Positions 6,051 to 29,791 of a stretch of 35,688 bases of DNA are shown here, in pieces. The stretch is taken from positions 1 to 35,688 of the forward strand of contig JAUVNV010000002.1 in NCBI GenBank assembly GCA_030599515.1, given 5' to 3'. Under the pieces are notes generated by a model. It was not told where the DNA came from. It saw nothing but the letters and a program-made list of their open reading frames with translations, and did not search any database. This DNA is from Acidimicrobiia bacterium. Its GTDB lineage: Bacteria; Actinomycetota; Acidimicrobiia; Spongiisociales; UBA5794. Position 1 is the first letter of the stretch; each line of letters begins with the position of its first letter. Made by a program: the position numbers and the translations under genes.

Positions 6051-6141
6051 ACAGACCACAGATCACAGCGGACAGCCACCGAACCATGTCTCACGGCCGG
6101 CGACCGGGTACTCGATACTCGGTACCCAATACTCAGTACTG
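6051..6141. repeat. Heptanucleotide tandem array, 13 units in one register
   Basis: Units: acagacc acagatc acagcgg acagcca ccgaacc atgtctc acggccg gcgaccg ggtactc gatactc ggtaccc aatactc agtactg. The array fills the convergent HNH/recR spacer. Confidence 0.85.
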
Positions 6142-6157
6142 ACCAGCGGCGCCGGTC

Positions 6158-6751
6158 CTACATCTCCAAGCGTCCCGACAGCGCTCGACCGAGCGTGATC
6201 TCGTCGGCGTAGTCGAGGTCGCCGCCGACCGGTAGACCGGAAGCGAGTCTCGTGACGGTGACACCGAGCGGCTTCAACATCCGGGCGAGGAGCATCGCCG
6301 TCGCATCTCCTTCGAGCGTTGGATTCGCCGCGACGATGACCTCCGTGATGTTCTCCGCGCCGACCCTGTCGACGAGTTCTTTCGCTCTGAGCTGATCCGA
6401 ACCGATCCCCTCGATCGGAGATATCGCACCTCCGAGGACGTGGTAGCGGCCGCTGAACTCCCCGGTCTTCTCGATCACCGGGATGTCCTGAGCACGCTCG
6501 ACGACGCACACGACCGACGTGTCACGCCGTAGATCACGACAGATCGAACACTCCTCTTCTGCAGTGACGTTGTAGCAACGAGAGCACAGCCGGACCTCGC
6601 GCCGCATCGACGTGATCGCGTCGGCGAGCCGGACCGCGTCGGCTTCCTCTGCGTTGAGGAGATGGAACGCGAGCCGCTGCGCGCTCTTCCGACCGATACC
6701 CGGAAGCCGGGCCAGTTCGTCGACGAGGCGCTGGACCGGCGGTTCGAACAT
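6158..6751 (-). CDS. recR: Recombination protein RecR
   Basis: N-terminal HhH ([20 protein letters not shown]), a C4 zinc finger ([12 protein letters not shown]) and a Toprim domain. The ATG overlaps the ybaB stop (TGATG). Confidence 0.95.
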
Positions 6752-7080
6752 CAGCCGAGCAGACCGCCGAGATCCATCCCGCCTGCGACGTCTCCCATCG
6801 AGCCTGCTGCATCCTCCGACGCTGCCAAGAGCGCCTGGTTGACGGCCGCGACGACGAGATCTCCGGCCATCTCCGGATCATCGGGGTCGAGGATCGACGG
6901 CTCGAAGTCGACCGAGACGAGTTCTCCCGATCCCCGTACGACTGCCTTCACCACGCCACCGCCGGCGGTTCCCTCGTACGTCTTCGCGGAGAGTTCGGCC
7001 TGTGCGGCCTCGATCTGCGCCTGCATCTGCTGCGCCTGCTGCATCAACTGGCGCATATCGTTCGGCATTCGTTGTGACAT
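6751..7080 (-). CDS. ybaB: Nucleoid-associated protein YbaB/EbfC
   Basis: 109 aa. [51 protein letters not shown] is the typical YbaB fold signature. The gene lies immediately upstream of recR. Confidence 0.9.
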
Positions 7081-7087
7081 GGCTTGA

Positions 7088-7093
7088 AGGGTA
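7088..7093 (-). promoter_or_regulatory. Candidate -10 box TACCCT for ybaB-recR, 7 nt upstream of ATG (leaderless geometry)
   Basis: The minus strand reads gTACCCTtcaagccATG. It fits the actinobacterial TANNNT -10 consensus. No SD is present. Confidence 0.35.
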
Positions 7094-7221
7094 CTGAGTA
7101 CTGAGTACTGAGTGCCCGGTGCCCGGTATCCGGTATCCGGTATCCGGTAGTTCGCAGTTCTTGAAGCTTGCAGCTTGTGGCTTGCAGCTCTCGTCTTTCT
7201 ACTTTCTACTTTCTACTTCTC

Positions 7222-7227
7222 TACTCT
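7222..7227 (+). promoter_or_regulatory. Candidate -10 box TACTCT for dnaX, 8 nt upstream of ATG (leaderless or near-leaderless geometry)
   Basis: Reads cTACTCTtcggcccaATG. There is no SD between the box and the ATG. The box lies inside a heptamer unit. Confidence 0.35.
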
Positions 7228-7235
7228 TCGGCCCA

Positions 7236-9074
7236 ATGACTCGCTACCAAGCTCTCTATCGAAAGTACCGGCCGCAGCGCTTCGATGAGGTGATCGGACA
7301 GGATCACGTGATCGGAACCCTCACCAGGGAGGTCACGGACGAGAAGGTCGCCCATGCCTACCTCTTCGCGGGGCCCCGCGGAACAGGGAAGACGACGACG
7401 GCCCGCCTTCTCGCGAAGTCGCTCAACTGCACCAACCGCACGACGGGCGCCGAACCCTGCAACGAGTGCGCCTCGTGCGCCGGCATCACCGAGGGGACGT
7501 CGCTCGACGTCATCGAACTCGACGCGGCGTCGCACAACAAGGTCGAGGACGTCCGGGAGATCCGTGTCAACGTGGGAACGGTCGCCGCCGCAGAAGGCGC
7601 CCGCCGGATCTACATCCTGGATGAGGCCCACATGCTCTCGCGTGCTGCAGGAAACGCTCTCCTCAAGACGCTTGAGGAACCGCCCGAGCACGTCGTATTC
7701 GTGCTCGCCACGACCGAGCCGTACAAGCTGCTCGACACGATCCGGAGCCGATCACAGAGGTTCGACTTCCATCCGGTGTCGTCGGAGACCCTCATCGGGT
7801 ACCTCGCAGAGATCTCGAAGCGCGAAGGGTTCACAGCGGATCATGCCGGCCTCTCGATGATCGCCACCCACGCCCGTGGATCGGTCCGGGACTCGATGAG
7901 CCTGCTCGAGCAGGTCGCCGCGTTGGGGGACGGCACCGTCTCGTCGGAGGGCGTCACCCGGGCTCTGGGACTGGCGGATGACGAGGCTTTCACTGGACTG
8001 GTGGCCGCTATCGCCGATCAGGACGCACCCGCGGCGCTCGGACTCGTCGCCCAGCTCGCTTCGCGCGGCGCCGACCTGCGACGGTTCGTCGCCGACGCAC
8101 TCGGCTTCTTCCGCGGCATTTTCCTCGCCCAGTACGCGCCGAACCTCGAGGAGATCACCGACGAACCGCCCGAGATCCTCGACGAGTGGCGCCGGATGGC
8201 GAAGGTCGTGCCGTCATCCGACGTGTTGCGCGCCATCGACCTGTTCTCCGAAGCACTCCTGCATCTCCGACAGGGCCGCGAGGAGCGACTCATGCTCGAG
8301 TTGGCGGTGATCCGCCTGACCCGACCGGAGACGACGGTCGATGCCGAGGCGCTCGCGGTACGAATGGACCGGTTGGAGCGAGACGTGAAGGTCGGAGCCC
8401 CCAGATACCAGCCGCCGGCTGCCAGCCCGACGAAGGAGACAGGAGACGGGGGACAGGAGAAAAGAGACAGCCCGAAGGAGGCGACAGGCCACAGGCGACG
8501 GGCAACAGGCGAGATCCAAGACGAGATGACGGACAGCCGACAGCCGACGGCCGACAGCGGCGAGCCGGAGCAAGTCGAGGTCGAAGAACCAACGGCGAGC
8601 GATTCAGTACCGACTACCGACTACCGACTACCGACTACCGACGGTGGACCCGGCGAAGCCGGATCCACCGTCACTCTTGCCGACTTCTCTGCGGCTTGGC
8701 CGGTTGTCGTCTCGCGCATCCGATCGGACTTCGGTGCTCGCCGGCACGCTTTCGTGAAAGTTGCCGAACCGCGATCGGTCGAGGGTTCGGTCGCCGTACT
8801 CACGATGCCTTCGCACCAGCACTTCCATCTCGAGCAGTTGAACGCCGACGAACAACTGCGAGGCGCCCTCGAAGCCATCACCGCCGAGATCCTCGGTTGC
8901 ACGGTCACGCTCCAGTTCCGCTCTGACGACGACCAGGTGCCGGCAGAGATGGAGACCGGAGACGAGTTGCCGCTCCGAGCACCCGAGAAGGATGATCTCG
9001 CTGAGGGCGAGGACCCCGAGGATCCCGCCGATATGGTCGCCGACCTCCTCGGCGGGAAGATCGTCGAGGAGTAG
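7236..9074 (+). CDS. dnaX: DNA polymerase III subunit gamma/tau
   Basis: YRKYRPQRFDEVIGQDHV, Walker A GPRGTGKTT, a Zn module (CTNRTTGAEPCNECASC), DEAHML and the sensor motifs are present. A low-complexity linker and an actinobacterial-type C-terminal domain follow. Start set at ATG 7236; the upstream ORF extension reads through the repeat array. Confidence 0.93.
   Translation: MTRYQALYRKYRPQRFDEVIGQDHVIGTLTREVTDEKVAHAYLFAGPRGTGKTTTARLLAKSLNCTNRTTGAEPCNECASCAGITEGTSLDVIELDAASHNKVEDVREIRVNVGTVAAAEGARRIYILDEAHMLSRAAGNALLKTLEEPPEHVVFVLATTEPYKLLDTIRSRSQRFDFHPVSSETLIGYLAEISKREGFTADHAGLSMIATHARGSVRDSMSLLEQVAALGDGTVSSEGVTRALGLADDEAFTGLVAAIADQDAPAALGLVAQLASRGADLRRFVADALGFFRGIFLAQYAPNLEEITDEPPEILDEWRRMAKVVPSSDVLRAIDLFSEALLHLRQGREERLMLELAVIRLTRPETTVDAEALAVRMDRLERDVKVGAPRYQPPAASPTKETGDGGQEKRDSPKEATGHRRRATGEIQDEMTDSRQPTADSGEPEQVEVEEPTASDSVPTTDYRLPTTDGGPGEAGSTVTLADFSAAWPVVVSRIRSDFGARRHAFVKVAEPRSVEGSVAVLTMPSHQHFHLEQLNADEQLRGALEAITAEILGCTVTLQFRSDDDQVPAEMETGDELPLRAPEKDDLAEGEDPEDPADMVADLLGGKIVEE
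8438..8640. repeat. Heptanucleotide array (29 units, single register) embedded in the dnaX linker coding region
   Basis: Units: gacagga gacgggg gacagga gaaaaga gacagcc cgaagga ggcgaca ggccaca ggcgacg ggcaaca ggcgaga tccaaga cgagatg acggaca gccgaca gccgacg gccgaca gcggcga gccggag caagtcg aggtcga agaacca acggcga gcgattc agtaccg actaccg x4. Confidence 0.85.
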
Positions 9075-9076
9075 GG

Positions 9077-9625
9077 GTGCGACTCGGGATCGACCTCGAC
9101 GGTGTCGTCGCCGACTTCAGTACGGGTTGGGTGAACCGCTACAACGACGAATTCGGATCGAACGTCAGCACCGACCAGGTGGACTCGTGGGACGCGATGG
9201 ACCACCTGACCCACTTCGAATCGAAGGGGGCCTTCTGGCGCTGGGCGGCCAGAGGCGTCCACGGGTCCGTGTTCCGGCACCTCGAGACCTACCCGGGTGC
9301 CCTCGAGGCGCTCGGCAGACTGAGCAAGGGTCACGAGGTCGTGATCATCACCGCGAAACCCGATTGGGCGGTGCACGACACGTTCGCCTGGATCGCAGAC
9401 CGGCGCATCCCGGCCCGCGAAGTCCATATCACTGAATCCAAATGGCAGATCCCTTGTGACGTCTACCTGGACGATTCCCCTCGCCAGATCGCCGAACTCC
9501 ACACCAACCGACCCGAGGCGATGGTGTGCCGCTACGTCCGCCCGTGGAACGAATCCGTTCCCGGCACCACGGATGTTCACGGCTGGGCCGAGTTCGAGAC
9601 GCTCGTCAACGCTCGCCGGCGATGA
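9077..9625 (+). CDS. HAD-superfamily 5'(3')-deoxyribonucleotidase-like protein (NT5C family)
   Basis: The N-terminal DxDxV motif (GIDLDGVVADF) and overall length fit PF06941-type nucleotidases. The GTG start is 2 nt after the dnaX stop, with GAGGAG just upstream. Confidence 0.7.
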   Translation: MRLGIDLDGVVADFSTGWVNRYNDEFGSNVSTDQVDSWDAMDHLTHFESKGAFWRWAARGVHGSVFRHLETYPGALEALGRLSKGHEVVIITAKPDWAVHDTFAWIADRRIPAREVHITESKWQIPCDVYLDDSPRQIAELHTNRPEAMVCRYVRPWNESVPGTTDVHGWAEFETLVNARRR

Positions 9626-9711
9626 GCCATTTCAGCATCGCATCGCGCACCGGGTATCCTGAGCATTGATGGAAGGGACGCATCCGCGTCCGTATCACTA
9701 CGGGAGAACAA

Positions 9712-10833
9712 ATGAGGAAATCACCTCTTATTGTCCTGCTCCTCGCCTTCGCGATGCTGATCGCAGCATGCGCGAGCACCGGCGATGAGGAGACCACGAC
9801 CACCGCAGCCGCGGCGACCACCGCAGCCGCGGCGGAGACAACCACGACTGCTGATCTGAAGGCCGACTGGCCTGAGAAGATTCTCTTCGGATTCATTCCG
9901 TCTGAGAAGCAGGAGAAGCTGAGCGACACGGTGCAGCCCTACATGGACTATCTCACCGCGGAGCTCGGGATCACGTTCGAGGGCATCATCACCGCCGACT
10001 ACAACGGTCTCGTCGTCGCCATGGGCGCCGGCAACGCCGACCTCGGCGCGTTCGGTCCGCTCGGCTATGTGCAGGCGAAAGAGCTGTACCCCACTATCGG
10101 CGTATTGATCCAGTCCATCCGATTCGGTTCGGACCTCTACCACGGGCAGTGGTTCACGAACGACCCGTCGCTGTGTGAGGACGAGCCCGTCGTGGGAGCA
10201 TACGAACTGGTCGACGGTGTTCCGACGATCATGGATCCGACCGAAGTCCCTGCGCTCCAGGTCGGCTGGGCCTACAACGACGACGGACTGGGGCAGGAAG
10301 TCCTCGAGGATGGCACAGAAGTCGCACAGGGCCTCGTCTGCACGGCGTCGCTCGACGTGGTGAAGGGCAAGACGATCGCGTTTGTCGAGGCGACTTCCAC
10401 GTCCGGCGGCTTGTACCCCCAACTCCAACTCTTCGAACTCGGCATCGACATCGAGAACGACCTCGAGTACTCGTACTTGACGTCGCACTCCGCCACCGTC
10501 CAGGCCGTTTACAACGGCGACTTCGACATCGGTGTCAGTTACGACGATGCCCGCCGCTCGGTTCGCAAGGACTACACCGATGTGGGCCAGAAGGTGATCG
10601 TGTTCAACATCACCGATGAGCAGATCCCAAACGACGTCGTTGCGGTGCGCGGTGAACTGCCGGAGAGCCTCCAGCTTGCGATCTTCGACGCGACGCAGAC
10701 CTATCTCGACACCGAAGAGGGCGAAGCCGTCTTCGACGAGATCTACGGATGGACCGGCATCCGGCTCGCACGCGATGAAGACTTCGACATCGTCCGCGAG
10801 GCGGCCGCACAGGCCGGCGTGCTCGACGGCTAG
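9712..10833 (+). CDS. phnD: Phosphonate/phosphite ABC transporter substrate-binding lipoprotein
   Basis: A lipoprotein signal (LLLAFAMLIAACAS) is followed by a Thr/Ala linker. PhnD-like core motifs are present (ILFGFIPSE, GYVQA). phnC and phnE follow. SD gggagaa lies upstream. Confidence 0.8.
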   Translation: MRKSPLIVLLLAFAMLIAACASTGDEETTTTAAAATTAAAAETTTTADLKADWPEKILFGFIPSEKQEKLSDTVQPYMDYLTAELGITFEGIITADYNGLVVAMGAGNADLGAFGPLGYVQAKELYPTIGVLIQSIRFGSDLYHGQWFTNDPSLCEDEPVVGAYELVDGVPTIMDPTEVPALQVGWAYNDDGLGQEVLEDGTEVAQGLVCTASLDVVKGKTIAFVEATSTSGGLYPQLQLFELGIDIENDLEYSYLTSHSATVQAVYNGDFDIGVSYDDARRSVRKDYTDVGQKVIVFNITDEQIPNDVVAVRGELPESLQLAIFDATQTYLDTEEGEAVFDEIYGWTGIRLARDEDFDIVREAAAQAGVLDG

Positions 10834-10845
10834 GGACGGAACACC

Positions 10846-10871
10846 GGGGGCCGGTCGCAGGGCCGGCCCCC
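10846..10871 (+). promoter_or_regulatory. Intercistronic GC-rich hairpin between phnD and phnC (9-bp stem gggggccgg/ccggccccc)
   Basis: 10846-10854 pairs with 10863-10871, with an 8-nt loop. It starts 13 nt after the phnD stop. Confidence 0.45.
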
Positions 10872-10887
10872 TCCCTTCCCGCGACTC

Positions 10888-11658
10888 ATGGGCTTCATCG
10901 ACTTCACCAACACGTCCGTCACGTACCCGGGGGGTCTTGTCGCGCTCAAGGACGTGACCCTGAGCATCGAGGAGGGTGAGTTCGTCGTCGTCGTCGGTCT
11001 CTCCGGAGCGGGGAAATCGACCATGCTCCGGGCCATCAACGGTCTGGTCCCGGTCGCGGGGTCGGTGCTCGTGGACGGCCGCGAGGTCGTGGGAGCATCC
11101 CAATCAGAACTGAGGGCCGTCCGATCCGACGTCGGCATGATCTTCCAAACGTTCAACCTCGTGAACCGGTCTCGCGTCGTCAACAATGCGCTCATGGGCC
11201 GGCTCTCGAAGATCCCCCGCTGGCGGAGCCTCCTCGGCCTCTGGCCCGCCGAGGACAAGGAGATCGCACTTCAATCCCTCGAACGCGTCGACATCGTTGA
11301 GAAGGCCTACATTCGTGCCTCCGACCTCTCCGGGGGTCAGCAGCAGCGTGTCGGCATCGCTCGCGCCCTCGCTCAGGAGCCCAAGATCATCCTCGCCGAC
11401 GAACCGGTCGCCTCGCTCGACCCGGTCACGTCGCACATGGTGATGCGCGATCTCCAGCGCATCAACCGCGAGTTGGGTATCACTACGCTCATCAACCTCC
11501 ACTTCCTTGATCTTGCCCGCCAATACGGGAAGCGCCTCATCGGACTGAACGACGGCCTGGTCGTGTTCGACGGCGACATCGCCGACGTCAACGACGAAGT
11601 CTTCCGCGGCATTTACGGCCGCGCTATCACACCCGACGATCTGCTCAACGAAAAGTGA
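10888..11658 (+). CDS. phnC: Phosphonate ABC transporter ATP-binding protein
   Basis: Walker A GLSGAGKST, signature LSGGQQQRV and Walker B ILADEP are present. The PhnC-type N-terminus and operon context agree. Confidence 0.9.
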   Translation: MGFIDFTNTSVTYPGGLVALKDVTLSIEEGEFVVVVGLSGAGKSTMLRAINGLVPVAGSVLVDGREVVGASQSELRAVRSDVGMIFQTFNLVNRSRVVNNALMGRLSKIPRWRSLLGLWPAEDKEIALQSLERVDIVEKAYIRASDLSGGQQQRVGIARALAQEPKIILADEPVASLDPVTSHMVMRDLQRINRELGITTLINLHFLDLARQYGKRLIGLNDGLVVFDGDIADVNDEVFRGIYGRAITPDDLLNEK

Positions 11659-13013: not shown

Positions 13014-13915
13014 CCGTGCCGGACCTCACTCCCGATGAGAAGATGGAGCAGTTCCGGCCTCAAGAGCCCCTCGGCCCGCGCATCATCCGCTGGGTTGTCG
13101 GCATCGCGATCGTCGTACCGTTCATCTGGGCGGTGATCGGCCTCGAGATCTCGCCGGAGCGCATCTGGCGAGCCCCCTCAGAGATCTGGGTTCTCCTCTC
13201 GGGAATGTTCCCGCCCGACTTCGACGACAGCGGCCGGATCGTGGCCAAGCTCCTGGAATCGATCTACATCGCCTGGATCGGCACGATGATGGGTGCCGTC
13301 TTCTCGTTCCCGCTCAGCTTCATGGCTGCGACCAACGTAGCCCCCCGCTGGATGACGATCCCGACGAGAGCCTTCCTGAGCGCCATCCGGGCGTTCCCCG
13401 AGCTGATCCTCGCCGTGATCCTCATCGTTCCGTTCGGCCTGGGACCGTTCACCGGCGCTCTGGCGATCGGTCTTCACTCCATCGGCACACTCGGCAAACT
13501 GTCCTCCGAGGTGATCGAGGGCGTCGACGACGGGCCGATCGAAGCGATCCGCTCAGCAGGTGGGACCCTGCCGCTGCAGATGCGATACGGCATCATCCCC
13601 CAGGCCATGCCGACGATCGTCGCGTACTGGCTGTACCGGTTCGAGATCAACATTCGCGCCTCCGCAGTGCTCGGCCTCGTCGGTGCCGGCGGCATCGGCG
13701 CCGACATCGTCGCCCGGCTGCATTTCAGGGCAGACTGGCCGAAGGCCGGTGCGGCGTTGCTCGCAACGATCGGTGTTGTCCTTGTCATCGACGCAGTCTC
13801 GTCGTCCATACGACGGAGGATCATCACCGGGCAGCCATCGACCAGCATGCTGTCGAAGGGCATGATCGCTATCACGGGTGCCGGACGGCCCCCCAGCACC
13901 GAACTCGGGGCCTGA
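13010..13915 (+). CDS. phnE: Phosphonate ABC transporter permease (second copy)
   Basis: PhnE core is present (LLESIYIAWIGTMMGAVFSFPLSF ... YGIIPQAMPTIVAYWLYRFEINIRASAVLGLVGAGGIG). ATG 13010 overlaps the upstream stop (ATGA). Confidence 0.85.
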   Translation: MTVPDLTPDEKMEQFRPQEPLGPRIIRWVVGIAIVVPFIWAVIGLEISPERIWRAPSEIWVLLSGMFPPDFDDSGRIVAKLLESIYIAWIGTMMGAVFSFPLSFMAATNVAPRWMTIPTRAFLSAIRAFPELILAVILIVPFGLGPFTGALAIGLHSIGTLGKLSSEVIEGVDDGPIEAIRSAGGTLPLQMRYGIIPQAMPTIVAYWLYRFEINIRASAVLGLVGAGGIGADIVARLHFRADWPKAGAALLATIGVVLVIDAVSSSIRRRIITGQPSTSMLSKGMIAITGAGRPPSTELGA

Positions 13916-14913
13916 TGACCGCCTTCCGTCTCCGAACCCGAAGGATAGCGGAGGCGCTCGAACGGGAAGACCTGGCACCGGCAGCGACCCTCTCGGTCAA
14001 CTCCGTCGGGCGTGCCGCTTCGGAGGAACCAGACCCGTGGAGAACTTCGTTCGAGCGCGACCGGGACCGCATCCTCCACTCGAAGGCGTTCCGGCGACTG
14101 AAGCACAAGACCCAGGTCTTCATGAACCCGGAGGGCGACCACTACGTCACCCGCCTCACGCACACGCTCCAGGTCACGCAGGTCGGCGGCGCCATCGCAC
14201 GGGCCCTCAGTCTCAACGGGGCGTTGACCGAGGCGATCTGTCTCGGACACGACGTGGGCCACTCCCCGTTCGGCCACACCGGCGAGGATGCGCTGAGCGA
14301 GTTCGTCGACGGCGAGTGGCGCCACTCCGCACAGTCGGTGCGGATCTTCGAGGTGCTCGAACCTCTCAATCTCACGTTCGAGGTCCTGGACGGGATCATG
14401 GCTCACCCGTGGAAGGTAGAGAACCCGGCGCGAACCCCCGAAGGCGCCATCGTTCGATTCGCCGATCGCATTGCGTATCTCGCTCACGACGCACTCGATG
14501 CGATTCGCGCCGGTGTGCTCCGGCCCTCCGACTTCCCGGCGCCGGTACTCGACACCCTTGGTGAGCCGGGGCGTGAGTGGATCGCTGCGATGATCGCCTC
14601 CGTGATCGAGACGTCCATGGAGCGCGATGAGGTTGCGATGGACGAGTACACACTCGACGTCATGCTCGAGCTCCGTGGCTTCATGTTCGAGAGTGTCTAC
14701 CTGAGGGCAGACGTCGAGCCGCAGCGGATCCGGGCCAGAGAGATCATCAGGAACCTCGTCGAGTACTACGTGACTCATCCCTCGGAGCTCCCCGACACCT
14801 ACCGCCACGACGATGCCGATACGTTGACCCAGGTGATCGACTTCGTTGCGGGCATGACCGACCGCTACGCCATCAGCCGCCACGACGAACTGTTCAGACC
14901 GCAACTGTTCTGA
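13915..14913 (+). CDS. dgt: dGTP triphosphohydrolase-like HD-domain protein
   Basis: FERDRDRILHSKAFRRLKHKTQVF, THTLQV and GHDVGHSPFGHTGE are hallmarks of the Dgt family. The ATG overlaps the phnE stop (ATGA). Confidence 0.88.
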   Translation: MTAFRLRTRRIAEALEREDLAPAATLSVNSVGRAASEEPDPWRTSFERDRDRILHSKAFRRLKHKTQVFMNPEGDHYVTRLTHTLQVTQVGGAIARALSLNGALTEAICLGHDVGHSPFGHTGEDALSEFVDGEWRHSAQSVRIFEVLEPLNLTFEVLDGIMAHPWKVENPARTPEGAIVRFADRIAYLAHDALDAIRAGVLRPSDFPAPVLDTLGEPGREWIAAMIASVIETSMERDEVAMDEYTLDVMLELRGFMFESVYLRADVEPQRIRAREIIRNLVEYYVTHPSELPDTYRHDDADTLTQVIDFVAGMTDRYAISRHDELFRPQLF

Positions 14914-14918
14914 TAGAG

Positions 14919-14995
14919 AGCACACAGCTAGCGGCCCACAGCAGACAGCCAGAAGCGTGTTCTACTGTTGTCTATCCGCTGTCTGCTGGCTTCAG
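14919..14995. repeat. Heptanucleotide array (11 units) whose two halves are inverted relative to each other
   Basis: Units: agcacac agctagc ggcccac agcagac agccaga agcgtgt tctactg ttgtcta tccgctg tctgctg gcttcag. 14939-14949 (cagcagacagc) is the exact reverse complement of 14978-14988 (gctgtctgctg). Confidence 0.8.
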
Positions 14996-15405
14996 CCCGT
15001 CAGCATCGCCACGACCGCGAGTACTCCCAGGTTCGCCAGCGTCCATACCAGGGCGATCGTGACGTAGCGACGCAGCCAGCGCCCCCACGTCTCCGACCGG
15101 ACGGCGAGCGCCGTGCCGAGCAAGTACCAGAGAGGCAGGCTGGTCACGGCGCCGAAGATCACCACGGTTGTTCGCGACACGTCGATGAAGTCGAACGAGA
15201 GGAACCACGACGTTGGGAGTGCGATGACGAGCATCACCGCTGCGATGAAACTCGAAGCGACGTCTTGCAGGTCGCCGGCCTCCCGGGGCCCGACGGCGAG
15301 CGCCATCACCACCATCACGATCGGATACGACAGCGCCATCAGCCCGGCCGCCGTCCGCCCAACCGTCGTTCGGCGCGGTGCGAACGAAACCCTATCTGAA
15401 GACAT
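14992..15405 (-). CDS. Hypothetical integral membrane protein (about 4 TM segments)
   Basis: 137-aa hydrophobic ORF. No family was recognised. The opposite-strand ORF 15113..15709 is Arg/Ser/Thr/Pro-rich and looks like a shadow frame. Confidence 0.5.
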   Translation of the reverse strand: MSSDRVSFAPRRTTVGRTAAGLMALSYPIVMVVMALAVGPREAGDLQDVASSFIAAVMLVIALPTSWFLSFDFIDVSRTTVVIFGAVTSLPLWYLLGTALAVRSETWGRWLRRYVTIALVWTLANLGVLAVVAMLTG

Positions 15406-16710: not shown

Positions 16711-16726
16711 TGCCGACTTCGGCGCA

Positions 16727-16742
16727 GTAGTCCGTAGTCCGT
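16727..16742. repeat. Short heptamer repeat (gtagtcc x2) in the convergent M23/coiled-coil spacer
   Basis: Reads gcagtagtccgtagtccgt. The reverse complement (ggactac) occurs in the 23683-23794 array. Confidence 0.6.
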
Positions 16743-16755
16743 GAACACTGTCTCG

Positions 16756-17205
16756 TCAGGCGATGAAGGCGAGCAGCGCCGCGAAGATGGCTGCGAGCGC
16801 GGTCATGCCACCGATCATGGTCACCGTGTAGGTTCGCAACTGATCGCGAATGACGTCCTGGAGGCCGTACATGCGATCGTCCATCGTCTCGAACCGCCGG
16901 TCCATTCGATCGAAACGCTGATCGACCTGCTCAAACCGCTGATCGACCTGCTCAAACCGCTGATCCACCTGCTCAAACCGCTGATCAACGAGATGGAACC
17001 GTCCGTCGATGGCGTCGAACCGGGCGCCGAGCAGTTCTTCGAGACGGTCGAATCGCCGCTCCAGCACGGCGACATCCGATCTCGTCGCCATCCGGGCCCC
17101 CGGTTCGGCTGGTAGGTACGTCATGAGCGTGTCGGCGTGTTCGTGACCGAGCACCTCCTCAAGACGAGCATACAGGGCACCGGCATCAGAGATGGGAGTG
17201 GACAT
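16756..17205 (-). CDS. Tail-anchored coiled-coil protein with 7-aa tandem repeats (DQRFEQV)
   Basis: ATG 17205 is preceded by AAAGGAG. The protein carries RFDRLEE / DGRFHLV / DQRFEQV x3 / DQRFDRM / DRRFETM repeats and a C-terminal TM segment (MIGGMTALAAIFAALLAFIA). Confidence 0.6.
   Translation of the reverse strand: MSTPISDAGALYARLEEVLGHEHADTLMTYLPAEPGARMATRSDVAVLERRFDRLEELLGARFDAIDGRFHLVDQRFEQVDQRFEQVDQRFEQVDQRFDRMDRRFETMDDRMYGLQDVIRDQLRTYTVTMIGGMTALAAIFAALLAFIA
16897..17001. repeat. 21-nt tandem repeats inside the coiled-coil gene (3 near-identical central units plus degenerate flanking units)
   Basis: ctgatcgacctgctcaaaccg occurs at 16918-16938 and 16939-16959. A copy with one substitution is at 16960-16980, and degenerate copies lie on both sides. 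Confidence 0.9.
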
Positions 17206-17267
17206 GGCGACTCCTTTCTGGTCCACGCCATAGTGTCATGCGCCTGCGACAGATTCTCGGCACTTGT

Positions 17268-17309
17268 GTCTTGCGTCTTGTGTCTTGCGTCTTGCTACTC
17301 AGCTACTCA
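17268..17309. repeat. Heptanucleotide array (6 units) in a divergent spacer
   Basis: Units: gtcttgc gtcttgt gtcttgc gtcttgc tactcag ctactca. Confidence 0.85.
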
Positions 17310-17317
17310 TGCCGTCC

Positions 17318-17323
17318 TAGCCT
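17318..17323 (+). promoter_or_regulatory. Candidate -10 box TAGCCT, 9 nt upstream of the ABC ATPase ATG
   Basis: Reads cTAGCCTgctgcacccATG. It fits TANNNT and there is no SD. Confidence 0.3.
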
Positions 17324-17332
17324 GCTGCACCC

Positions 17333-23664: not shown

Positions 23665-23682
23665 GAGAGCAGGGGACGGGCT

Positions 23683-23794
23683 GCAAGTAGAAAGTAGAAA
23701 GACCGGAATCGGACTACGGACCCGACTACGGGATACCGGATACCGAGTACCGAGTACCGATTACCGAGTACCGATTACCGATTACCGATTACCG
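23683..23794. repeat. Heptanucleotide array, 16 units in a single register
   Basis: Units: gcaagta gaaagta gaaagac cggaatc ggactac ggacccg actacgg gataccg gataccg agtaccg agtaccg attaccg agtaccg attaccg attaccg attaccg. The array overlaps the last codons of the protease gene. Confidence 0.95.
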
Positions 23795-24236
23795 ACAATT
23801 CAGCAAAGACCATCTCTACCACCTCATCAACTGCGGCGTCGACTTCGGGGCTCAGATTCACTCCCGGTTCGACTTTCCCGATCTCGATCCCGAAGACGAC
23901 CAACTCGTCGGGCAACATGTCGACGGCACCACCCAGGTCGATGGCTTCGACGACGCCGATGAGATGGGTCGATGCCGAGCGCCACGAGGATGGGAATCCC
24001 CCCTTCCCGTCGATACGATGAATCGAGCCGGGAACGCCACCCGAGACCACGGCGTCGACGACGACGGCCAGCCTGGCGTCGCGCCACGTGTCGAGAAGAT
24101 GTGTGGCATCCCCGACCGATTCGACCAGGGCAACCGACTCCGGAGGTCGGCCGGCGAGCCGGTCGATCACGACCGGCCCCGCAGCGTCGTCCCCCATCAT
24201 CCGGTTCCCGACCCCGATCACGACGACGTCAGCCAC
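23775..24236 (-). CDS. Hydrogenase maturation endopeptidase
   Basis: [23 protein letters not shown] is the typical HycI/HoxW-family N-terminus. The gene overlaps the large-subunit stop by 8 nt and starts with GTG. Confidence 0.8.
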
Positions 24237-25521
24237 GCTCCACCGTCAGGTCGAGGAAGTGCGTGGCGCATGAGATACACGGGTCGTAGTTGCGGATCGA
24301 CTGTTCGAGGACCCACGACAACTCGTCGTCGGGAAGATGGAGGTGCCGTTCGAGAACGAACCGGAGATCCGACTCGATCGTCAACTGGTTCTGAGCCGTC
24401 GGGGGAACGATCTGCGCGTCGGCGATACGCCCGTCGTCGTGAATCCGATATCGGTGGTACAGCAGTCCTCGGGGGGCTTCCGTCGCACCGTGCCCCTCAC
24501 CCTCGACCGCCCTGTATGCCACGTATGGCTCCGGTGGCTGCTCGTAGCCGTCGATGATCCGCAGGGACTCTTCTACTGCGTAGAGCACCTCGACGGCACG
24601 CACCACGATGCTCTTGAAGGGATTGGCGACCATGGTCCCGAGGCCAGCGTCGAAGGCCATCTCTTGAGCGAACGGCGTCAGCTTCTCGAAGTTGTTGGCG
24701 TAGCGGGCGAGCGGACCGACGTGATAGGCGCCGCGCTCGCGGATCTGCGAATGGAGGGCGTTCGATCGCTCAACGTGCTGCTCGACGAAGTAGTTGTTGT
24801 ACTCGGAGATCGCCAGGTCGAGACCCTTGCTCGAGACGATCCGACCCTCGTTGAATGGATACTCGTCGGCGTGGCTCAACGAGACGAACTCGAAATCCAT
24901 GTCGGCTTCGGGGAAGTTGAATCCGCTCACGAAGCGGATCGTCGCCACTGCTGCGTCCTTGGCCCATTCGAGTTCGGGGACGAGCGATTCGAGTTCGCGT
25001 TTCGTCGGTGTCCGGTAGAACCCGCCTACACGGACGTTGATCGGGTGAATCTCGCGCCCGCCCACGAGTGCAACGATCGAGTTCCCGGCCTTCTTGAGCC
25101 GGAGACCCTGTTCAACGACCTCCCGGTGATCGGCGGCCATGTGGACACCGCTCTCGTACCCCAGGAAGTCGGGAGCGTGGAGCAGGTAGATGTGCAGCGC
25201 GTGGCTCTCGATCCACTCGCCGCAGTAGAGCAACCTGCGCAACTCGCGCAGTGAGCCTCCAACGGTCACACCGAACGCGTCCTCCATCGCGTGGACGGCA
25301 CTCATCTGATACGCAACCGGGCAGATGCCGCAGATCCGTGCCGTGATGTCCGGTGCTTCGGTGTGGGGCCGACCCCGCATGAACGCCTCGAAGAACCGGG
25401 GCGGCTCGAAGATCGAGAACTCGACGTCCTCGATCTGATCATCGACGACCTTGACCCGCATCGATCCCTCGCCTTCGACCCGTGCCAGGTACTCGACCGA
25501 GATCTCTCTAGCGTTCGTCAT
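24229..25521 (-). CDS. hyhL: [NiFe]-hydrogenase large subunit (alpha), group 3b-like
   Basis: RVEGEG, the N-terminal [10 protein letters not shown] and the C-terminal DPCISCATH Ni-binding cysteine pairs are present. The length (430 aa) and partner subunits fit the bidirectional NADP-coupled (sulfhydrogenase-type) class. Confidence 0.9.
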
Positions 25522-26312
25522 CGCGCACCTCCGATCTCGATCGCTGCTTCCCGCCGGTCGCTCTCAACACGGAACGCCTCGGACCAAGCGTTGAAGCTCC
25601 TGAACGCGTCGACAAGCTCCCGGTCGGATGCGCCCATGACTCCCCATTGGTCGGCGAGAGCGGCCGTGTTCGGACTCTCCATCGGACCGAAGCAACCGAA
25701 GCAGCCCCGGTCGTACGCGGGGCACAGGGCATCGCAACCTGCCTGGGTGACCGGGCCAAGGCACGGTGTGCCGTGGGACACCATCACACACGGATTGCCC
25801 CTCAACTTGCACTCGACGCACACGCTGTAGGTCGGGATGTTCGGGCGCCGCCCCTGGAGGAACGCGACCAGCACCTCGAGCAATTGGTACTTCGAGACCG
25901 GGCACCCGCGCAGTTCGAAGTCGACCTGCACATGGTCGGCGACGGGCGTCGAGGTCTGCAGCGTGTCGATGTAGTCGGGGTGGGCGTAAACGTACCGGGT
26001 GAAGTCGTCGACGTCCTTCCAGTTGCGCAACGCCTGGATCCCGCCTGCCGTAGCGCATGCCCCGATCGTGATGAGCAAGGGAGTCTCCTCCCGGATCTGC
26101 TTGATCCGTTCGGCGTCATGGGCGGTCGTGATCGATCCCTCGACCAGAGTCACGTCATAGGGCGGTGGAAGCACCTCGCGTGACGCTTCCATGAAGTTGG
26201 CGATCTGGATGACACCGGCGACGGCGAGGAGCTCGTCCTCGAGGTCGAGGAGGCTCAGTTGGCAGCCATCGCACGAAGCGAACTTGTGAACCGCCAGAGT
26301 CGGAAGGGCCAT
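25518..26312 (-). CDS. hyhS: [NiFe]-hydrogenase small subunit (delta)
   Basis: The N-terminus reads [28 protein letters not shown] and further Cys clusters are present. SD GGGAGG lies 8 nt upstream, and the stop overlaps the large-subunit ATG (ATGA). Confidence 0.88.
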
Positions 26313-26313
26313 G

Positions 26314-27162
26314 TCACACCTCCCTGGTCCAGAACGTGTCGGACATCGCAGCACAGCTCAGTATCGGACCGTCCTTGCAAACGAAGTGACGCCCGAGCTG
26401 GCAATGACCGCAGAGGCCGATCCCGCACTTCATGTTCCGCTCCATCGAGACGTACAGCCGATCGTCGGTGATCCCTTTCCGTTCCAAGTCCTGGATCGTG
26501 AATCGCATCATGATCTCAGGACCGCAGACGAATGCCACGGCCGACTCTGGATCGAACGACGCACGGTTGATCAAGGACGTCACAACACCGACCGGTCCGC
26601 GCCAGACCTGATCACCGTGGTCGACGGTGATCAGGACGTCCAGGTCGAATCGACCACGCCACTCCTGGAGCTCGTCGGCGAACAGCAGCTCGCTCGGCGA
26701 TCGGGCGCCGTACATGAGCGTGACATTGCCGTAGCGATCACGATGCTCGAGAATCTCGAAGATCGCGGGCCGAAGCGGAGCAAGCCCGATTCCGCCGGTG
26801 ACGATGAGCAGATCGCCACCCTCGGCGACGCCGGTCGGCCACGCCGACCCATATGGGCCTCGCACGCCGACGGAGTCTCCCGGTGAGACGGAGGTGAGAG
26901 CGTCGGTGACCGGCCCGACGGCCCGGATCGTTTGAACGAGCCGGCTCGGATCGTTCGGATCTCCACTGATCGAGATCGGCACCTCACCGACTCCGAAGGC
27001 GTAGAGCATCGTGAACTGACCGGGTGCGAATCCCCAGTCGCTCTCCGGTGGTTCGATGTCGAGCGTGAATGTGTCTTCGAGCTCTCGCACGACCGAGCGG
27101 ACCCGGCAGGGAACCGGGTGCATCGGGCGTACGGCGGGTTCAGCGAGGAGTTGAGTAGACAT
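26314..27162 (-). CDS. hyhG: Hydrogenase gamma subunit (FAD/NAD(P)-binding, PyrK-like, C-terminal 2Fe-2S)
   Basis: A ferredoxin-reductase-type fold ([20 protein letters not shown]) and a C-terminal motif [10 protein letters not shown] are present. The start is either ATG 27162 (23-nt overlap with the upstream gene) or ATG 27123. Confidence 0.85.
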
Positions 27163-27601
27163 CGAGTAACTGAATCCTTATCGATTGCATGCGGTTGACA
27201 AGCATCTCGGTGAAGCGCTTCATCAGCTCATATCCGAGAGCTGGATCGACTTCGGAGGCATTCTTCAGTTTGGGTCCGTCGAACCAGATGCCCTCGGTAT
27301 CGCTGTGCACGTGGGCGTCATAGGTCCACCGGTACGGCGGGTACAGCCACGACCATCCGAGGAAGTCGCCGGAATGCAGGGTGAGGATCACCTGCGGCCC
27401 GTGCCCCGGCGTCTGCATCTCGAGCGCAACGTCACCGTCCAGGATGAGCAGCGGACCAAGGGCGCTCGTGCCCTCAGTGAAGATCGTCTGCCCTTCGTGA
27501 TAGGACACCAGCGCGCCCGTCTCCGCGACGATCCGGATCTGGTCGTGGGTCATCCCCGCAAAGAAGGGATGCTCGACGATCAGGTCGAACACTTCACTCA
27601 T
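27140..27601 (-). CDS. Stand-alone cyclic-nucleotide-binding-like (CAP effector domain) protein
   Basis: 153 aa. HPFFAGMTHDQIRIVAETGALVSYHEGQTIFTEGTSALGPLLILDGDVALE matches the cNMP-binding beta-barrel pattern. There is no DNA-binding or other output domain. The ATG overlaps the beta-subunit stop (ATGA). Confidence 0.72.
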   Translation of the reverse strand: MSEVFDLIVEHPFFAGMTHDQIRIVAETGALVSYHEGQTIFTEGTSALGPLLILDGDVALEMQTPGHGPQVILTLHSGDFLGWSWLYPPYRWTYDAHVHSDTEGIWFDGPKLKNASEVDPALGYELMKRFTEMLVNRMQSIRIQLLDVYSTPR

Positions 27602-28746
27602 TCGGCTACCTCCTTGACGGCGGGAGTTCCGACCGCAACCCGGCGGATGTCCCGTTCCCGGATCATTGCTACTTCTCTCGTGATGTCGATTCCGACCGGG
27701 CACCAGGTGATGCAGCGTCCACACCCCACGCATCCGATCGAATCGAACTGGTCCTGCCACGACGCCAACTTGTGCGTGAGCCACTGGCGGTAACGCGCGG
27801 AGGACGACGAACGAACCGGTCCGCCGTGGATGTAGGAGAAGTCGAGAGTGAAACACGAGTCCCATGTCCGCGCCCTCTCTGCGCTGGACCCGTCGAGCGC
27901 CTGACGGTCCTCAACGGTTGAACAGAAGCACGTGGGACACACCATCGTGCAGTTCGTACATGACAGACAGCGCTCTCCTATCTCATCCCAGTACGGGTTC
28001 GCGAGGTTCGCATAGAGCAGGTCCTTCAGACCCTTCGTCTCGAGCGTCCGCCCCATGTGGTCCGTCGCATGGACCACGAGTCGACGCGCCGTGACGACCT
28101 CTTCGTCGCGAGCCTCGCGGGCTGCGAGCTCCGCAAGCACATCGGCGCCCGTGTCGGTCCCCGCCTCGGCAAGGAAGTAGTGGTTTTCGCCGCCCAGCAC
28201 TTCCGTGAGGGCGATGTCGTAGCCCTCGTTGACATCCGGCCCGGTTCCGAGCGAGGCGCAGAAGCAGGTTGCCGCGGGCTCGGTGCAGTTCACAGCGACG
28301 GTGAACGACCGCTTTCGCCGCTCTGTGTAGATGCCGTCTTCGACGGGCAGGTACACGTCGTCCTGGATCTTCATCGCCGCCACCTCGCAAGGACGTGCTC
28401 CGAAGAACGCGTAGCTCGGAGGCTCCTCGGGTTCCACCGTCTCGAATCCGTCCGCCGTACGAAGTCCCTTCCAGAACACGGTCCCAGGCGGCGTGAGGAA
28501 CTTCTTCCACGACTGAGGCCCGACGACGTACCCGAAGAGTGCGTCGTCGTCTCGTTCCTCGAGACGGTACGTCCCGGCCTCCTGCCGATCGCGTATGCCG
28601 ACCGGTAGATCCCCGGTCGATGTGATCGTGTCATAGAGAATGGTCTGGCCACGAACGGTCGGTCCGACGACCTCGTAGCCCCGGTCGATGAGGGCGTCGA
28701 TGAGAGCATCGACGCCCTCACGATCGATGACGAGTGGTTCTGTCAC
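27598..28746 (-). CDS. hyhB: Hydrogenase beta subunit (4Fe-4S cluster protein)
   Basis: Cys motifs CLSCTNCTMVCPTCFC and CVGCGRCITWCP are present. I place the start at GTG 28746 (VTEPLVIDREGVDALI) after GGATGGAG. The upstream 84 codons of the ORF are Arg/Pro-rich and unlikely to be coding. Confidence 0.8.
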   Translation of the reverse strand: MTEPLVIDREGVDALIDALIDRGYEVVGPTVRGQTILYDTITSTGDLPVGIRDRQEAGTYRLEERDDDALFGYVVGPQSWKKFLTPPGTVFWKGLRTADGFETVEPEEPPSYAFFGARPCEVAAMKIQDDVYLPVEDGIYTERRKRSFTVAVNCTEPAATCFCASLGTGPDVNEGYDIALTEVLGGENHYFLAEAGTDTGADVLAELAAREARDEEVVTARRLVVHATDHMGRTLETKGLKDLLYANLANPYWDEIGERCLSCTNCTMVCPTCFCSTVEDRQALDGSSAERARTWDSCFTLDFSYIHGGPVRSSSSARYRQWLTHKLASWQDQFDSIGCVGCGRCITWCPVGIDITREVAMIRERDIRRVAVGTPAVKEVAE

Positions 28747-28903
28747 GTCTCCATCCTGGGATGCTCCGGTACACGGTACGAACGGCCGGCAGGGTGGCCT
28801 AGGGCCGGAGGTCTCAGGACGGAGGCCGTTCGACCCTATCGCGGTTCGGTGCCGCGTCGGGCGACAACGGTGACACTCGATGGGCGCTACGGCGTCCGCC
28901 CGA

Positions 28904-28909
28904 TAGCCT
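28904..28909 (+). promoter_or_regulatory. Candidate -10 box TAGCCT, 7 nt upstream of the PAC2 GTG (leaderless geometry)
   Basis: Reads gaTAGCCTtccggtcGTG. It fits TANNNT and there is no SD. Confidence 0.4.
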
Positions 28910-28916
28910 TCCGGTC

Positions 28917-29756
28917 GTGAACCCCGTACGACGCTTCGGAAAACCTTCCCTTCGCCGGCCGCGCGCGGTTCTCGCGTTCGAAGGCTGGAACGACGCATGT
29001 GATGCCGCCTCCGGAGCCCTCCGCCATCTGCTGGAGCACCGCGACGTCCGGCACCCCTTCGCCATCATCGAATCGGAGGAGTTCTTCGACTTCCAGGAGC
29101 ACCGCCCCTCGGTCTCCGTCCAGAACGGTGCCGTCCAAGCGATGACGTGGCCCGAGACACGCTTCTACGCGATCGAACGCCCCGATCGGGACCACGACCT
29201 CGTCATCGTGGTCGGAGACGAACCGACGTTCCGCTGGAAGACCTTCGCCCGAACCGTGACGGCGGTTCTCGCCGACAGTGGCGTCGAGTCCGCAACGATG
29301 CTCGGTGCCTACATCGGATCGGTCACCCACTCGAGACCCGTCCCCCTGTCGGCCGTCGCCACCGACCCTTCATTCCTCGAGGCGACCACATTGCCGCCTA
29401 CCGACTACGAGGGGCCGACCGGGATCATCGCCGTGCTCGGAGAAGCGTGCAAGGAGGCCGGCATCCCGGCCACGAGTATCTGGGCGGCGACGCCGCACTA
29501 CCTCGCGGCGAATCCGAATCCGATGGCGATGCGCGCTCTGCTCAGCAAGGCCGGCGAAGTCGTCGGTTTTGACGGAGACAGCGAAGAACTCCGCAACCTT
29601 GAGGCCGAGTTCATCGTCCAGGTCGACGAGGCCGTTGCAGAATCGGACGACCTCGCCGAGTACGTTCGCGAGGTCGCTGAGAACGGCCGGGAGATGGATC
29701 CGGGACGGACGGGTGATCTCGTCGATGAGATCGAGCGCTTCCTCAAAGACGTGTGA
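28917..29756 (+). CDS. PAC2 (proteasome assembly chaperone 2-like) family protein
   Basis: LRRPRAVLAFEGWNDACDAASGA and the overall length are typical of actinobacterial PAC2-domain proteins. Confidence 0.78.
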   Translation: MNPVRRFGKPSLRRPRAVLAFEGWNDACDAASGALRHLLEHRDVRHPFAIIESEEFFDFQEHRPSVSVQNGAVQAMTWPETRFYAIERPDRDHDLVIVVGDEPTFRWKTFARTVTAVLADSGVESATMLGAYIGSVTHSRPVPLSAVATDPSFLEATTLPPTDYEGPTGIIAVLGEACKEAGIPATSIWAATPHYLAANPNPMAMRALLSKAGEVVGFDGDSEELRNLEAEFIVQVDEAVAESDDLAEYVREVAENGREMDPGRTGDLVDEIERFLKDV

Positions 29757-29763
29757 CCGGCGT

Positions 29764-29791
29764 CAGTACCGAGTGCTCAGTACCCGGTACG
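29764..29791. repeat. Short heptamer array (4 units)
   Basis: Units: cagtacc gagtgct cagtacc cggtacg. It lies in the convergent PAC2/bS22 spacer. Confidence 0.7.

Follow-up and report, generated by a model that had tools for sequence, protein, structure and literature searches.

Tandem heptanucleotide arrays in spacers and the DnaX linker of an Acidimicrobiia genome, an example of a published but mechanistically unexplained class of prokaryotic repeats

Tandem repeats with a unit of seven nucleotides have been described in many prokaryotes. In the survey by Mrazek, Guo and Shah (PNAS 2007), as summarised in PMC4679880 and PMC4692102, heptanucleotides formed the most abundant class of long simple sequence repeats (SSRs) and dominated among units of 5-11 nt; they were over-represented in the intergenic DNA of many prokaryotes, and the ten genomes with the most repeats of 5-11 nt units included three Actinobacteria. 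The same two papers report the proposal that they arise by slippage of a polymerase whose footprint is about 7 nt. In the SPADE survey (10.1101/309039), no other short tandem repeat was as abundant as tandem heptamers in intergenic DNA across a wide range of prokaryotes, and its authors saw 'no clear clue' to the meaning of the prime-number periodicity. Here, we analysed such arrays in a 35,688-nt stretch of an Acidimicrobiia bacterium genome (Spongiisociales; UBA5794; assembly GCA_030599515.1, contig JAUVNV010000002.1, positions 1-35,688 of the forward strand), referred to below, at its full length, as the window. A preliminary description made from the sequence alone had presented the arrays as an STRR-like system not yet described for this kind of genome, with the STRR repeats of heterocystous cyanobacteria as the only comparable case. 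An STRR-like heptanucleotide repeat phenomenon is indeed present in this Acidimicrobiia genome, as the array calls and the excess over shuffled sequence presented below indicate. The claim of novelty did not survive, since intergenic tandem heptamers of prokaryotes had already been published in the works cited above; nor is STRR the only parallel, since the GGGAATC repeats of Xanthomonas and the TAACTGA repeats of Beggiatoaceae have also been described. The window arrays are an Acidimicrobiia example of these already published, mechanistically unexplained tandem heptamers, and our literature search found no paper on heptamer repeats in Acidimicrobiia specifically.

Like the long heptanucleotide SSRs of the Mrazek and SPADE surveys, the window arrays consist of head-to-tail 7-nt units, exceed chance expectation, lie mainly between genes, are spread patchily across lineages and have no known function; the 7-nt tandem excess, the non-coding bias and the copy-number steps of whole units that define the class were all found. 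The accounts consulted were not found to mention mosaic arrays of several units that fill whole spacers, arrays located in the DnaX linker or an excess of inverted pairs expressed in numbers. The STRR repeats of Calothrix, Nostoc and Anabaena are also tandem non-coding heptamers with a genome-specific vocabulary at many loci and an unresolved function. They occur in heterocystous cyanobacteria, whereas the window arrays belong to Acidimicrobiia and string several unit families together. The TAACTGA repeats of marine Beggiatoaceae, some Cyanobacteria and Bacteroidetes (PMC4679880) share the intergenic location and the puzzling phylogenetic spread, and often stand, as do some window arrays, just upstream of start codons without a canonical ribosome-binding site. 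The window unit GTACTGA matches TAACTGA at 5 of 7 positions (ACTGA in common). However, Beggiatoaceae use one dominant unit in 2-6 copies, whereas the window has many units and carries arrays also downstream of genes and in a coding linker. The GGGAATC/GGGGA(C/T)T repeats of Xanthomonas and Nostoc (Rehm et al. 2015, PMC4692102) resemble the window arrays in occupying the same gene spacers in related species with varying length and sequence, and in forming inverted pairs (occasional there). G-tracts in their units fold into G-quadruplexes, four is the preferred number of copies, and such repeats are scarcer than expected in divergent spacers; the window units have no G-tracts, and divergent spacers are those most often occupied (18/31 in the pooled loci described below). 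No tandem copy of the STRR units CCCCA[AG]T, TT[GT]GTCA and CAACAGT was present on either strand of the window, nor did it contain tandem copies of TAACTGA, TTTTGAA, GGGAATC or GGGGA[CT]T. A CRISPR array was ruled out, since it would require repeats of 23-50 nt with unique spacers, and the period here is 7 nt without spacers.

The arrays stand far above chance at period 7. A lag-k scan (21-nt sliding segment, at least 15 matches) identified eight regions totalling 537 nt at lag 7, compared with a mean of 0.5 regions and 14.6 nt in 50 dinucleotide-preserving shuffles; together with the period-7 calls of Tandem Repeats Finder listed in Table 1, this answered positively, at window scale, the proposed check against shuffled controls. 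Lags of 4, 5, 8, 10 and 11 yielded 0-32 nt each, and at lags that are multiples of three the signal reflected coding periodicity only. The excess is thus specific to period 7 among the periods that are not multiples of 3. Eight arrays had been listed beforehand. Seven of these intervals showed a lag-7 identity of 0.49-0.72 against about 0.27 in shuffled sequence (p <= 0.0004, 5000 shuffles each), p-values that are optimistic because the coordinates had been picked after viewing the sequence. The eighth, with two units at 16727-16742, was not significant (p = 0.11). Six of the eight are strong and 29764-29791 is marginal; Tandem Repeats Finder made no call there or at 14919-14995, and the former was also missed by the lag-7 scan. 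In register, the arrays are runs of identical units giving way to related units. The statement that the 7-nt register is never lost does not hold in detail: one unit has 8 nt (7214-7228), the register shifts twice (8466-8480 and 8515-8530), periodicity is missing from 8557 to 8606, and the two units at 17294-17309 follow each other with a period of 8.

Table 1. Arrays, unit indels between strains and other features of the window (positions in the 35,688-nt stretch; TRF, period-7 calls of Tandem Repeats Finder)
Feature	Position	Strand	Setting or content	TRF
ACAGnnn sub-array (ACAGACC, ACAGATC, ACAGCGG, ACAGCCA)	6046-6078		DUF222/recR convergent spacer; begins 8 nt past the DUF222 stop	6047-6068
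GGTACTC-family sub-array (GGTACTC, GATACTC, GGTACCC, AATACTC, AGTACTG)	6094-6141		Ends 17 nt before the recR stop (opposite strand)	6108-6140
Mosaic array	7082-7234		Occupies the whole divergent ybaB/dnaX spacer; lag-7 identity 0.67	7091-7225 (five adjoining blocks with different consensus units)
dnaX in-frame array, three sub-arrays	8429-8651	+	GACAGGA type; GGCGACA and GCCGACA types; (TACCGAC)5	8434-8642 (four blocks)
Weak inverted pair, ACAGCnn-type units and complements	14919-14995		Convergent spacer, HD-domain gene/membrane protein gene	none
GTAGTCC x2	16727-16742			16727-16742
(CTTGTGT/CTTGCGT) x4.7, then TACTCAG-type x2	17256-17309		Divergent spacer upstream of ABC ATPase gene	17263-17295
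Mosaic array	23683-23803		Convergent spacer, metallo-beta-lactamase/rhodanese gene and hycI	23685-23795
Marginal four-unit GGTAC-family remnant (CAGTACC, GAGTGCT, CAGTACC, CGGTACG)	29764-29791		Co-directional spacer	none
Strain indel	6057-6063		Minus ACAGATC, in L081	
Strain indel	7123-7129		Minus CCGGTAT, in L081	
Strain indel	at 7194		Plus CTTTCTA, in L081	
Strain indel	17270-17277		Minus one CTTGYGT unit, in L244	
-10-like hexamer TACCCT	7088-7093	-	7 nt upstream of ybaB ATG (7080-7078)	
-10-like hexamer TACTCT	7222-7227	+	8 nt upstream of dnaX ATG (7236)	
tRNA-Gly (anticodon CCC)	34028-34098 (Rfam); 34028-34101		Sole Rfam or ARAGORN match in the window	

The ybaB/dnaX spacer gives the clearest view of the mosaic structure, its blocks following each other in the order GTACTGA x3, GTGCCCG x2, GTATCCG x4, single diverged units, CTTGCAG-type x4 and CTTTCTA x3-4. 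The second long mosaic, read on the minus strand, runs from several copies of GGTAATC/GGTACTC through GGTATCC x2 and GTAGTC to GTCTTTC TACTTTC TAC. The array reported inside dnaX was confirmed by Pfam domain mapping: it encodes DnaX residues 399-472, exactly the linker between domain III (235-363) and DnaX_C (475-564). The orthologous dnaX linkers of four further genomes (L164, L010, L170 and L179) likewise hold arrays. The array at 17256-17309 adjoins a small repeat-containing open reading frame (ORF) upstream of an ABC transporter. Genes were called with our own codon-likelihood caller, which reproduced the JGI calls of the first 17 kb, and most were named from Pfam domains; the neighbours of the arrays are housekeeping genes (recR, ybaB, dnaX, ABC transporters and hydrogenase).

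The location of the arrays was evaluated in a pooled set of 22 array-positive loci (255 kb), which was ascertained around dnaX, so that the ybaB/dnaX spacer and the dnaX linker are over-sampled. Arrays accounted for 24.7 % of the bases of divergent spacers, 16.6 % of co-directional and 12.6 % of convergent ones, and for 0.38 % of coding sequence. This contrast between intergenic and coding DNA, about 45-fold, bears out the expected enrichment of arrays in spacers. Arrays lying wholly within genes were restricted to the dnaX linker, in five genomes. The preliminary description had further placed arrays in nearly every convergent or divergent spacer and had found no clear ones at tightly coupled co-directional junctions. 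For the window the first statement holds loosely. By lag-7 identity, arrays are clear in three of the five convergent spacers (a fourth, 16711-16755, is weak), in one of the four divergent spacers (a second, 17227-17332, partly) and in none of the nine co-directional ones, and a stricter array threshold gives two of five convergent and two of four divergent spacers. In the pooled loci, however, arrays were present in 18/31 divergent, 26/71 co-directional and 7/21 convergent spacers, and the preference disappeared (Fisher test of co-directional versus the rest, p = 0.27). The lack of arrays at co-directional junctions is therefore a small-sample feature of the window, and the rule that holds is one of unconstrained versus constrained DNA. 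The distance to the next start codon is 9-31 nt for some arrays (7082-7234 and 17256-17309), others follow stop codons or are coding; no bias in base composition (purine/pyrimidine, strand) with respect to the direction of the flanking gene was found.

Strain contigs found by exact-protein look-up provided a direct view of array change. Five contigs from three JGI metagenomes and two from one Logan run (L081, L082, L083 and L244-L247), with 99.0-99.9 % identity to the window, were compared; an exact look-up with HycI gave no additional strain contigs. All the recovered contigs bear the arrays. Four indels separated the strains within arrays (Table 1), each of exactly one 7-nt unit, and no indels of other lengths occurred there, which is the unit-number polymorphism that had been proposed as a check. 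Within 17256-17309 the C/T pattern inside the units also varied among strains. The L081 contig carried three unit indels in about 34 units, compared with substitutions at 0.49 % per nt over the aligned 14.9 kb, which indicates that unit turnover is fast relative to point mutation. The dnaX linker arrays differed between strains by substitutions only, with zero unit indels, as expected if selection removes frame-breaking changes of unit number. A separate coding repeat lies near these arrays: positions 16888-17001, in a hypothetical ORF (16756-17226, minus strand, no Pfam match), consist of a 21-nt (7-residue) tandem repeat, CGCTGATCGACCTGCTCAAAC x3.4, which varies by +/-21 nt among strains, the JGI products having 142, 149 and 156 residues.

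The same contigs bear on the suspicion that the arrays are artefacts of short-read metagenome assembly or sequencing. The window and most of its relatives are metagenome-assembled, and larger losses were noted in the strain contigs, namely 47 nt (14908-14954) and 91 nt (15167-15257) in JGI 3300040953 and 104 nt (6808-6911) in JGI 3300040954. The first takes the stop codon of the HD-domain gene together with the left arm of the 14919-14995 inverted array, the second lies inside the membrane-protein gene and the third inside ybaB; these losses are either real deletions or assembly errors, and in the latter case they would speak for an artefact. Against it, the same arrays were recovered independently in the JGI and the Logan contigs, the same unit families occupy orthologous positions in a different species (L164, below), and arrays of the same units are found in the cultured isolates Rhodopirellula sp. 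SM50, Aequorivita todarodis and Fulvivirga imtechensis, as well as in megabase-scale single contigs. An artefactual origin is effectively refuted and would be extraordinary at this point.

The nearest DnaX and MetH relatives are all uncultured Acidimicrobiia metagenome-assembled genomes (MetH at most 86 %, DnaX at most 81 % identity), which, with a GC content of about 64 %, agrees with the earlier view of a GC-rich genome of actinobacterial type. The sister species L164 shares 85 % nucleotide identity in recR-ybaB and 77 % in dnaX, with 81 % identity of the DnaX protein. It retains the unit families of the window at the same places in differing copy numbers. Upstream of its dnaX there is only (AGTACTG)4 GGTACTC, the ybaB/dnaX spacer measuring 73 nt against 155 nt in the window; its dnaX linker holds ACAGAC-type and then GAGTACC-type units, and a remnant of the GGTACTC family, GGTACTCGATACC, follows recR. 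More distant genomes carry unrelated units in the orthologous spacer. When 80 dnaX loci from species-representative genomes were scanned for period-7 arrays, some Acidimicrobiia loci contained 15-35 nt of array per kb, and most Acidimicrobiia, Solirubrobacterales and others about 0-2; MetH loci and metagenome contigs displayed the same distribution. In a neighbour-joining tree of DnaX, array-positive loci fell into at least three clades with negatives interspersed, so that mosaic arrays similar to those of the window are present in three or more clades of Acidimicrobiia.

We consider it fairly probable that the arrays are heptanucleotide SSRs formed by slippage in 7-nt steps and by point mutation in weakly constrained DNA. 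Strand slippage in steps of 7 nt, sometimes of 14 or 21 nt, would create and maintain the arrays where constraint is weak, in spacers of any orientation and in the disordered DnaX linker, in which only the frame must hold. Point mutations would diversify the units, and later slippage would re-amplify a mutated unit to 2-5 identical copies; mosaic arrays would keep their register, since indels of 7 nt would be far more frequent than those of other lengths. The identity of units supports this succession, decreasing smoothly over distances of one to nine units (0.72, 0.63, 0.54, 0.48, 0.43, 0.39, 0.37, 0.34 and 0.335; background about 0.25), which points to local duplication and point mutation rather than to a fixed motif. 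Simple slippage had been argued against at first; however, the strain differences are single-unit gains and losses within blocks, as slippage produces, and the decay of identity is smooth. The 7-nt step would then be a step of replication slippage, possibly set by the polymerase footprint, the sole proposal on this point found in the literature, and most arrays would be near-neutral filler. Single arrays may nevertheless have acquired a role as spacers upstream of promoters or as terminator-like hairpins. Palindromic tetramers were considered as drivers of slippage and rejected, since about 5 of 14 window units contain one against roughly 0.36 expected per unit (a rough hand count), that is, without enrichment.

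Several observations weigh against slippage and mutation as the whole account. The first concerns the vocabulary, which also disagrees with the original proposal that units are copied whatever their sequence. The window units fall into about five families (GGTAnTC, GGTATCC, TACTTTC, ACAGnnn and CTTGYRK), each found at no fewer than two loci. In a set of 60 perfectly duplicated canonical units, AGG/CCT occurred once against 14.5 expected, and AGTA, ACTG, GTAC and ACAG were enriched 3-5 fold; CCC/GGG was also rarer in arrays (15.9 vs 25.4 per kb). In each of six genomes an identical canonical unit was found at more than one locus, two window spacers 16 kb apart have a common block order, and (GTACTGA)3 and (TTCACAG)3 recur across many phyla, as described below. 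Vocabulary bias, unit sharing, block order and cross-phylum recurrence would not be predicted from neutral slippage alone and call for a sequence bias of slippage, a dispersal of units or selection. In addition, slippage explains neither the 7-nt step nor the restriction to some lineages, the identity of units nine steps apart still exceeds the background, and the mutation rates were judged indirectly, from the strain comparison.

The shared block order raises the question of whether arrays, or composite blocks of them, are copies of a dispersed repeat element that moved by transposition, ectopic recombination or gene conversion, so that common units and order would reflect copying rather than independent growth. 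The reverse complement of 23683-23795 and the interval 7088-7230 present their blocks in the same order. In an alignment of the 23683-23803 array with 7075-7240 the column identity was 76 %, with identical blocks of 15 and 19 nt, and the local score for 7088-7230 was reached by 0/1000 shuffles of unit order; the shared stretches are themselves tandem repeats, which inflates alignment scores. Canonical heptamers common to non-orthologous spacers of one genome, in the six genomes mentioned, and GGTATCC arrays in non-orthologous spacers of the window and L164 would also fit dispersal. On the other hand, there are only two composite copies in 35.7 kb, nothing was seen of terminal inverted repeats, target-site duplications or an accompanying transposase, and the copy-number changes between strains involve single units, not whole elements. 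In a comparison with REP/REPIN or MITE elements, which are conserved sequences of 20-200 nt with defined ends and many copies, inverted pairs were common and one composite pair shared its block order, with no defined ends and two copies seen in the window. Dispersal of an element is regarded as very unlikely.

Inverted pairs were quantified as arrays with a partner, that is, a tandem of the reverse-complement unit with at most 2 mismatches in 14, within 200 nt. In Acidimicrobiia 19/97 arrays had such a partner, compared with 0 when reversed and complemented control probes were used, and in the cross-phylum loci 149/619 arrays, compared with 11-17 in controls (median gap 59 nt). Under slippage, both arms of an existing hairpin or palindrome probably expand together, for example by intra-strand template switching. 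Pairs of this kind were also seen upstream of dnaX in several relatives, as (TTCACAG)n...(CTGTGAA)n in L004 (2125-2384) and L176 (5874-5990) and as (GCAATTC)n...(GCCAATT)n in L182 (1580-1690), with about 25-185 nt of unique sequence between the arms. Since the spacer of L004 and L176 is divergent, an identical unit stands on the sense strand of either gene; in L182 the upstream gene is co-directional with dnaX.

The excess of inverted pairs over controls is also what would be expected if the arrays were selected cis-elements, either 7-nt-periodic platforms for an oligomeric DNA- or RNA-binding protein or bidirectional terminator hairpins without a U-tract, with slippage merely tuning the copy number. 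Cold-shock-domain proteins, ribosomal protein S1 (proposed for TAACTGA) or a partner such as that proposed for Nostoc are candidate binders. The restricted vocabulary common to several loci, with its GTAC and ACAG cores and strong AGG/CCT depletion, and the appearance of many arrays as a fixed core of 3-4 nt with variable positions (ACAGnnn, GGTAnTC) are consistent with selection, as is the retention of unit families at orthologous sites in L164. Deletion of a heptamer repeat in Nostoc altered the promoter read-out (10.1101/2022.06.06.494920), and translational control has been proposed for the TAACTGA repeats (MacGregor 2015, PMC4679880). In contrast, the identity of units falls towards background without a plateau at a motif, copy number varies among near-identical strains, and, without any strand bias with respect to the genes, arrays occur upstream of them, downstream of them and in a coding linker. 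A possible similarity of the GTCTTTC and GTCTTGC units to a heptamer consensus of CspB, for which MacGregor refers to a microarray study by Morgan (2007), was set aside, as it would concern two unit families only.

Folding and promoter analyses bear on the same question. All three convergent spacers hold stable hairpins of -27 to -33 kcal/mol (-29 kcal/mol for 14919-14995), in favour of a terminator-like function. However, consensus scans for intrinsic terminators with a T-tract and for sigma-70 promoters found none at the arrays. RNA structure as a unifying feature was discarded, since the z-scores of the ten spacer strands folded were inconsistent (-2.3 to +2.4, mostly within +/-2); the plus strand of 17256-17309 is less stable than shuffled sequence (z = +2.4), and this array is thus significantly unstructured. 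An Rfam search of the window at the gathering score matched the arrays to no known RNA family. A derivation of the units from -10 elements was also rejected, TANNNT occurring at 3.66 per kb in arrays vs 4.21, with no enrichment. In actinobacterial promoters, the distance from a -10 element of the TANNNT type to the transcription start is about 7 nt, and many mRNAs of this group are leaderless. In about 18 of the 20 dnaX loci (read by eye) a TAC[CT]NT hexamer precedes the start codon by 7-9 nt, with no visible Shine-Dalgarno sequence, and -10-like hexamers precede both genes in the window (Table 1), which suggests, as judged from sequence, that ybaB and dnaX are leaderless with promoters abutting the array between them. 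If this is so, 7082-7234 would be untranscribed promoter-upstream DNA, which argues against a role at the RNA level there. Taking both sides together, we regard selected cis-elements as rather unlikely.

Changes of one unit in dnaX were simulated. A gain or loss (+/-1 unit) would truncate tau, giving products of 428, 504 or 565 residues with no immediate stop. A switch between gamma and tau by unit slippage was set aside for this lack of an immediate stop codon and the absence of unit indels between strains, and was kept as a low-probability idea. Contingency SSRs of phase variation switch the expression of surface or virulence genes by unit changes in the 5' coding part or between the -35 and -10 elements; the window arrays differ from these, the flanking genes being housekeeping genes, the dnaX arrays having no unit indels between strains and the simulated unit changes truncating tau.

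The recurrence of units outside Acidimicrobiia was seen in exact searches with (TTCACAG)3 and (GTACTGA)3, each of which had at least 120 matches in species-representative genomes; the matches to these two units spread over more than 10 phyla. Among the matches listed were Bacteroidota, Acidobacteriota, Planctomycetota, Chloroflexota, Gemmatimonadota, Nitrospirota, Desulfobacterota, Verrucomicrobiota, Cyanobacteria and Proteobacteria, plus one archaeal genome. The loci around these matches (L248-L486) contained 1-11 mosaic-style heptamer arrays per 8 kb, mostly at least two. Both units have an ACTG/CAGT core in common with the published TAACTGA and STRR3 (CAACAGT). A broader, and in our view quite unlikely, possibility is that the arrays are the product of a conserved, sequence-biased process or factor operating across many phyla, which would favour units with an ACTG/CAGT or GTAC core, avoid AGG/CCT and generate inverted pairs, the arrays described here being evolvable modules. 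A replisome or repair activity with a 7-nt step and hairpin template switching, or an oligomeric nucleic-acid-binding protein with a 7-nt period, may be responsible in that case. The arrays would then set the geometry of leaderless divergent promoters, form terminator hairpins without a U-tract and shape the DnaX tau linker, and the loss of one unit in the first dnaX sub-array would lead to a 428-residue gamma-like product.

Some observations on the genes around the arrays were made in parallel. The DUF222 gene (4764-6038), which adjoins the first array, has no counterpart at the syntenic position in L164, and the differences between the window and L081, substitutions as well as small indels, fall mostly into positions 4735-5489 of its region; this gene is possibly a mobile insertion beside the array. 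DUF222 proteins are presumably HNH endonucleases of the 13E12 type. The dnaX gene is divergent from ybaB-recR at 6158-9074 and in about 20 related loci; the usual arrangement is presumably a co-directional dnaX-ybaB-recR. A perfect 18-nt tandem duplication, CGACCACCGCAGCCGCGG x2.1, lies at 9797-9834 near the N-terminus of a phosphonate-binding ABC substrate-binding protein (9712-10833). Directly after the 23683-23803 array starts a minus-strand cluster (23775-28998) with Pfam matches to the hydrogenase maturation protease HycI, the large and small subunits of NiFe hydrogenase, an NAD-binding oxidoreductase, a cNMP-binding protein and a 4Fe-4S protein, which, from the order of domains, we read as a soluble (sulfhydrogenase-like) NiFe hydrogenase.

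For the annotation of such genomes, the arrays are a source of error, since they inflate spacers, lengthen spurious ORFs (e.g., 7119-9074) and make frame-sensitive hot spots. The features that render this system more tractable are the strain series with single-unit indels, the sister species, the linker arrays of an essential gene, the inverted pairs in measurable excess and a unit vocabulary whose bias recurs across phyla. Should the 7-nt step depend on certain replisomes or repair systems, phylogenetic profiling based on the patchy spread of the arrays over clades could serve to find the responsible gene.

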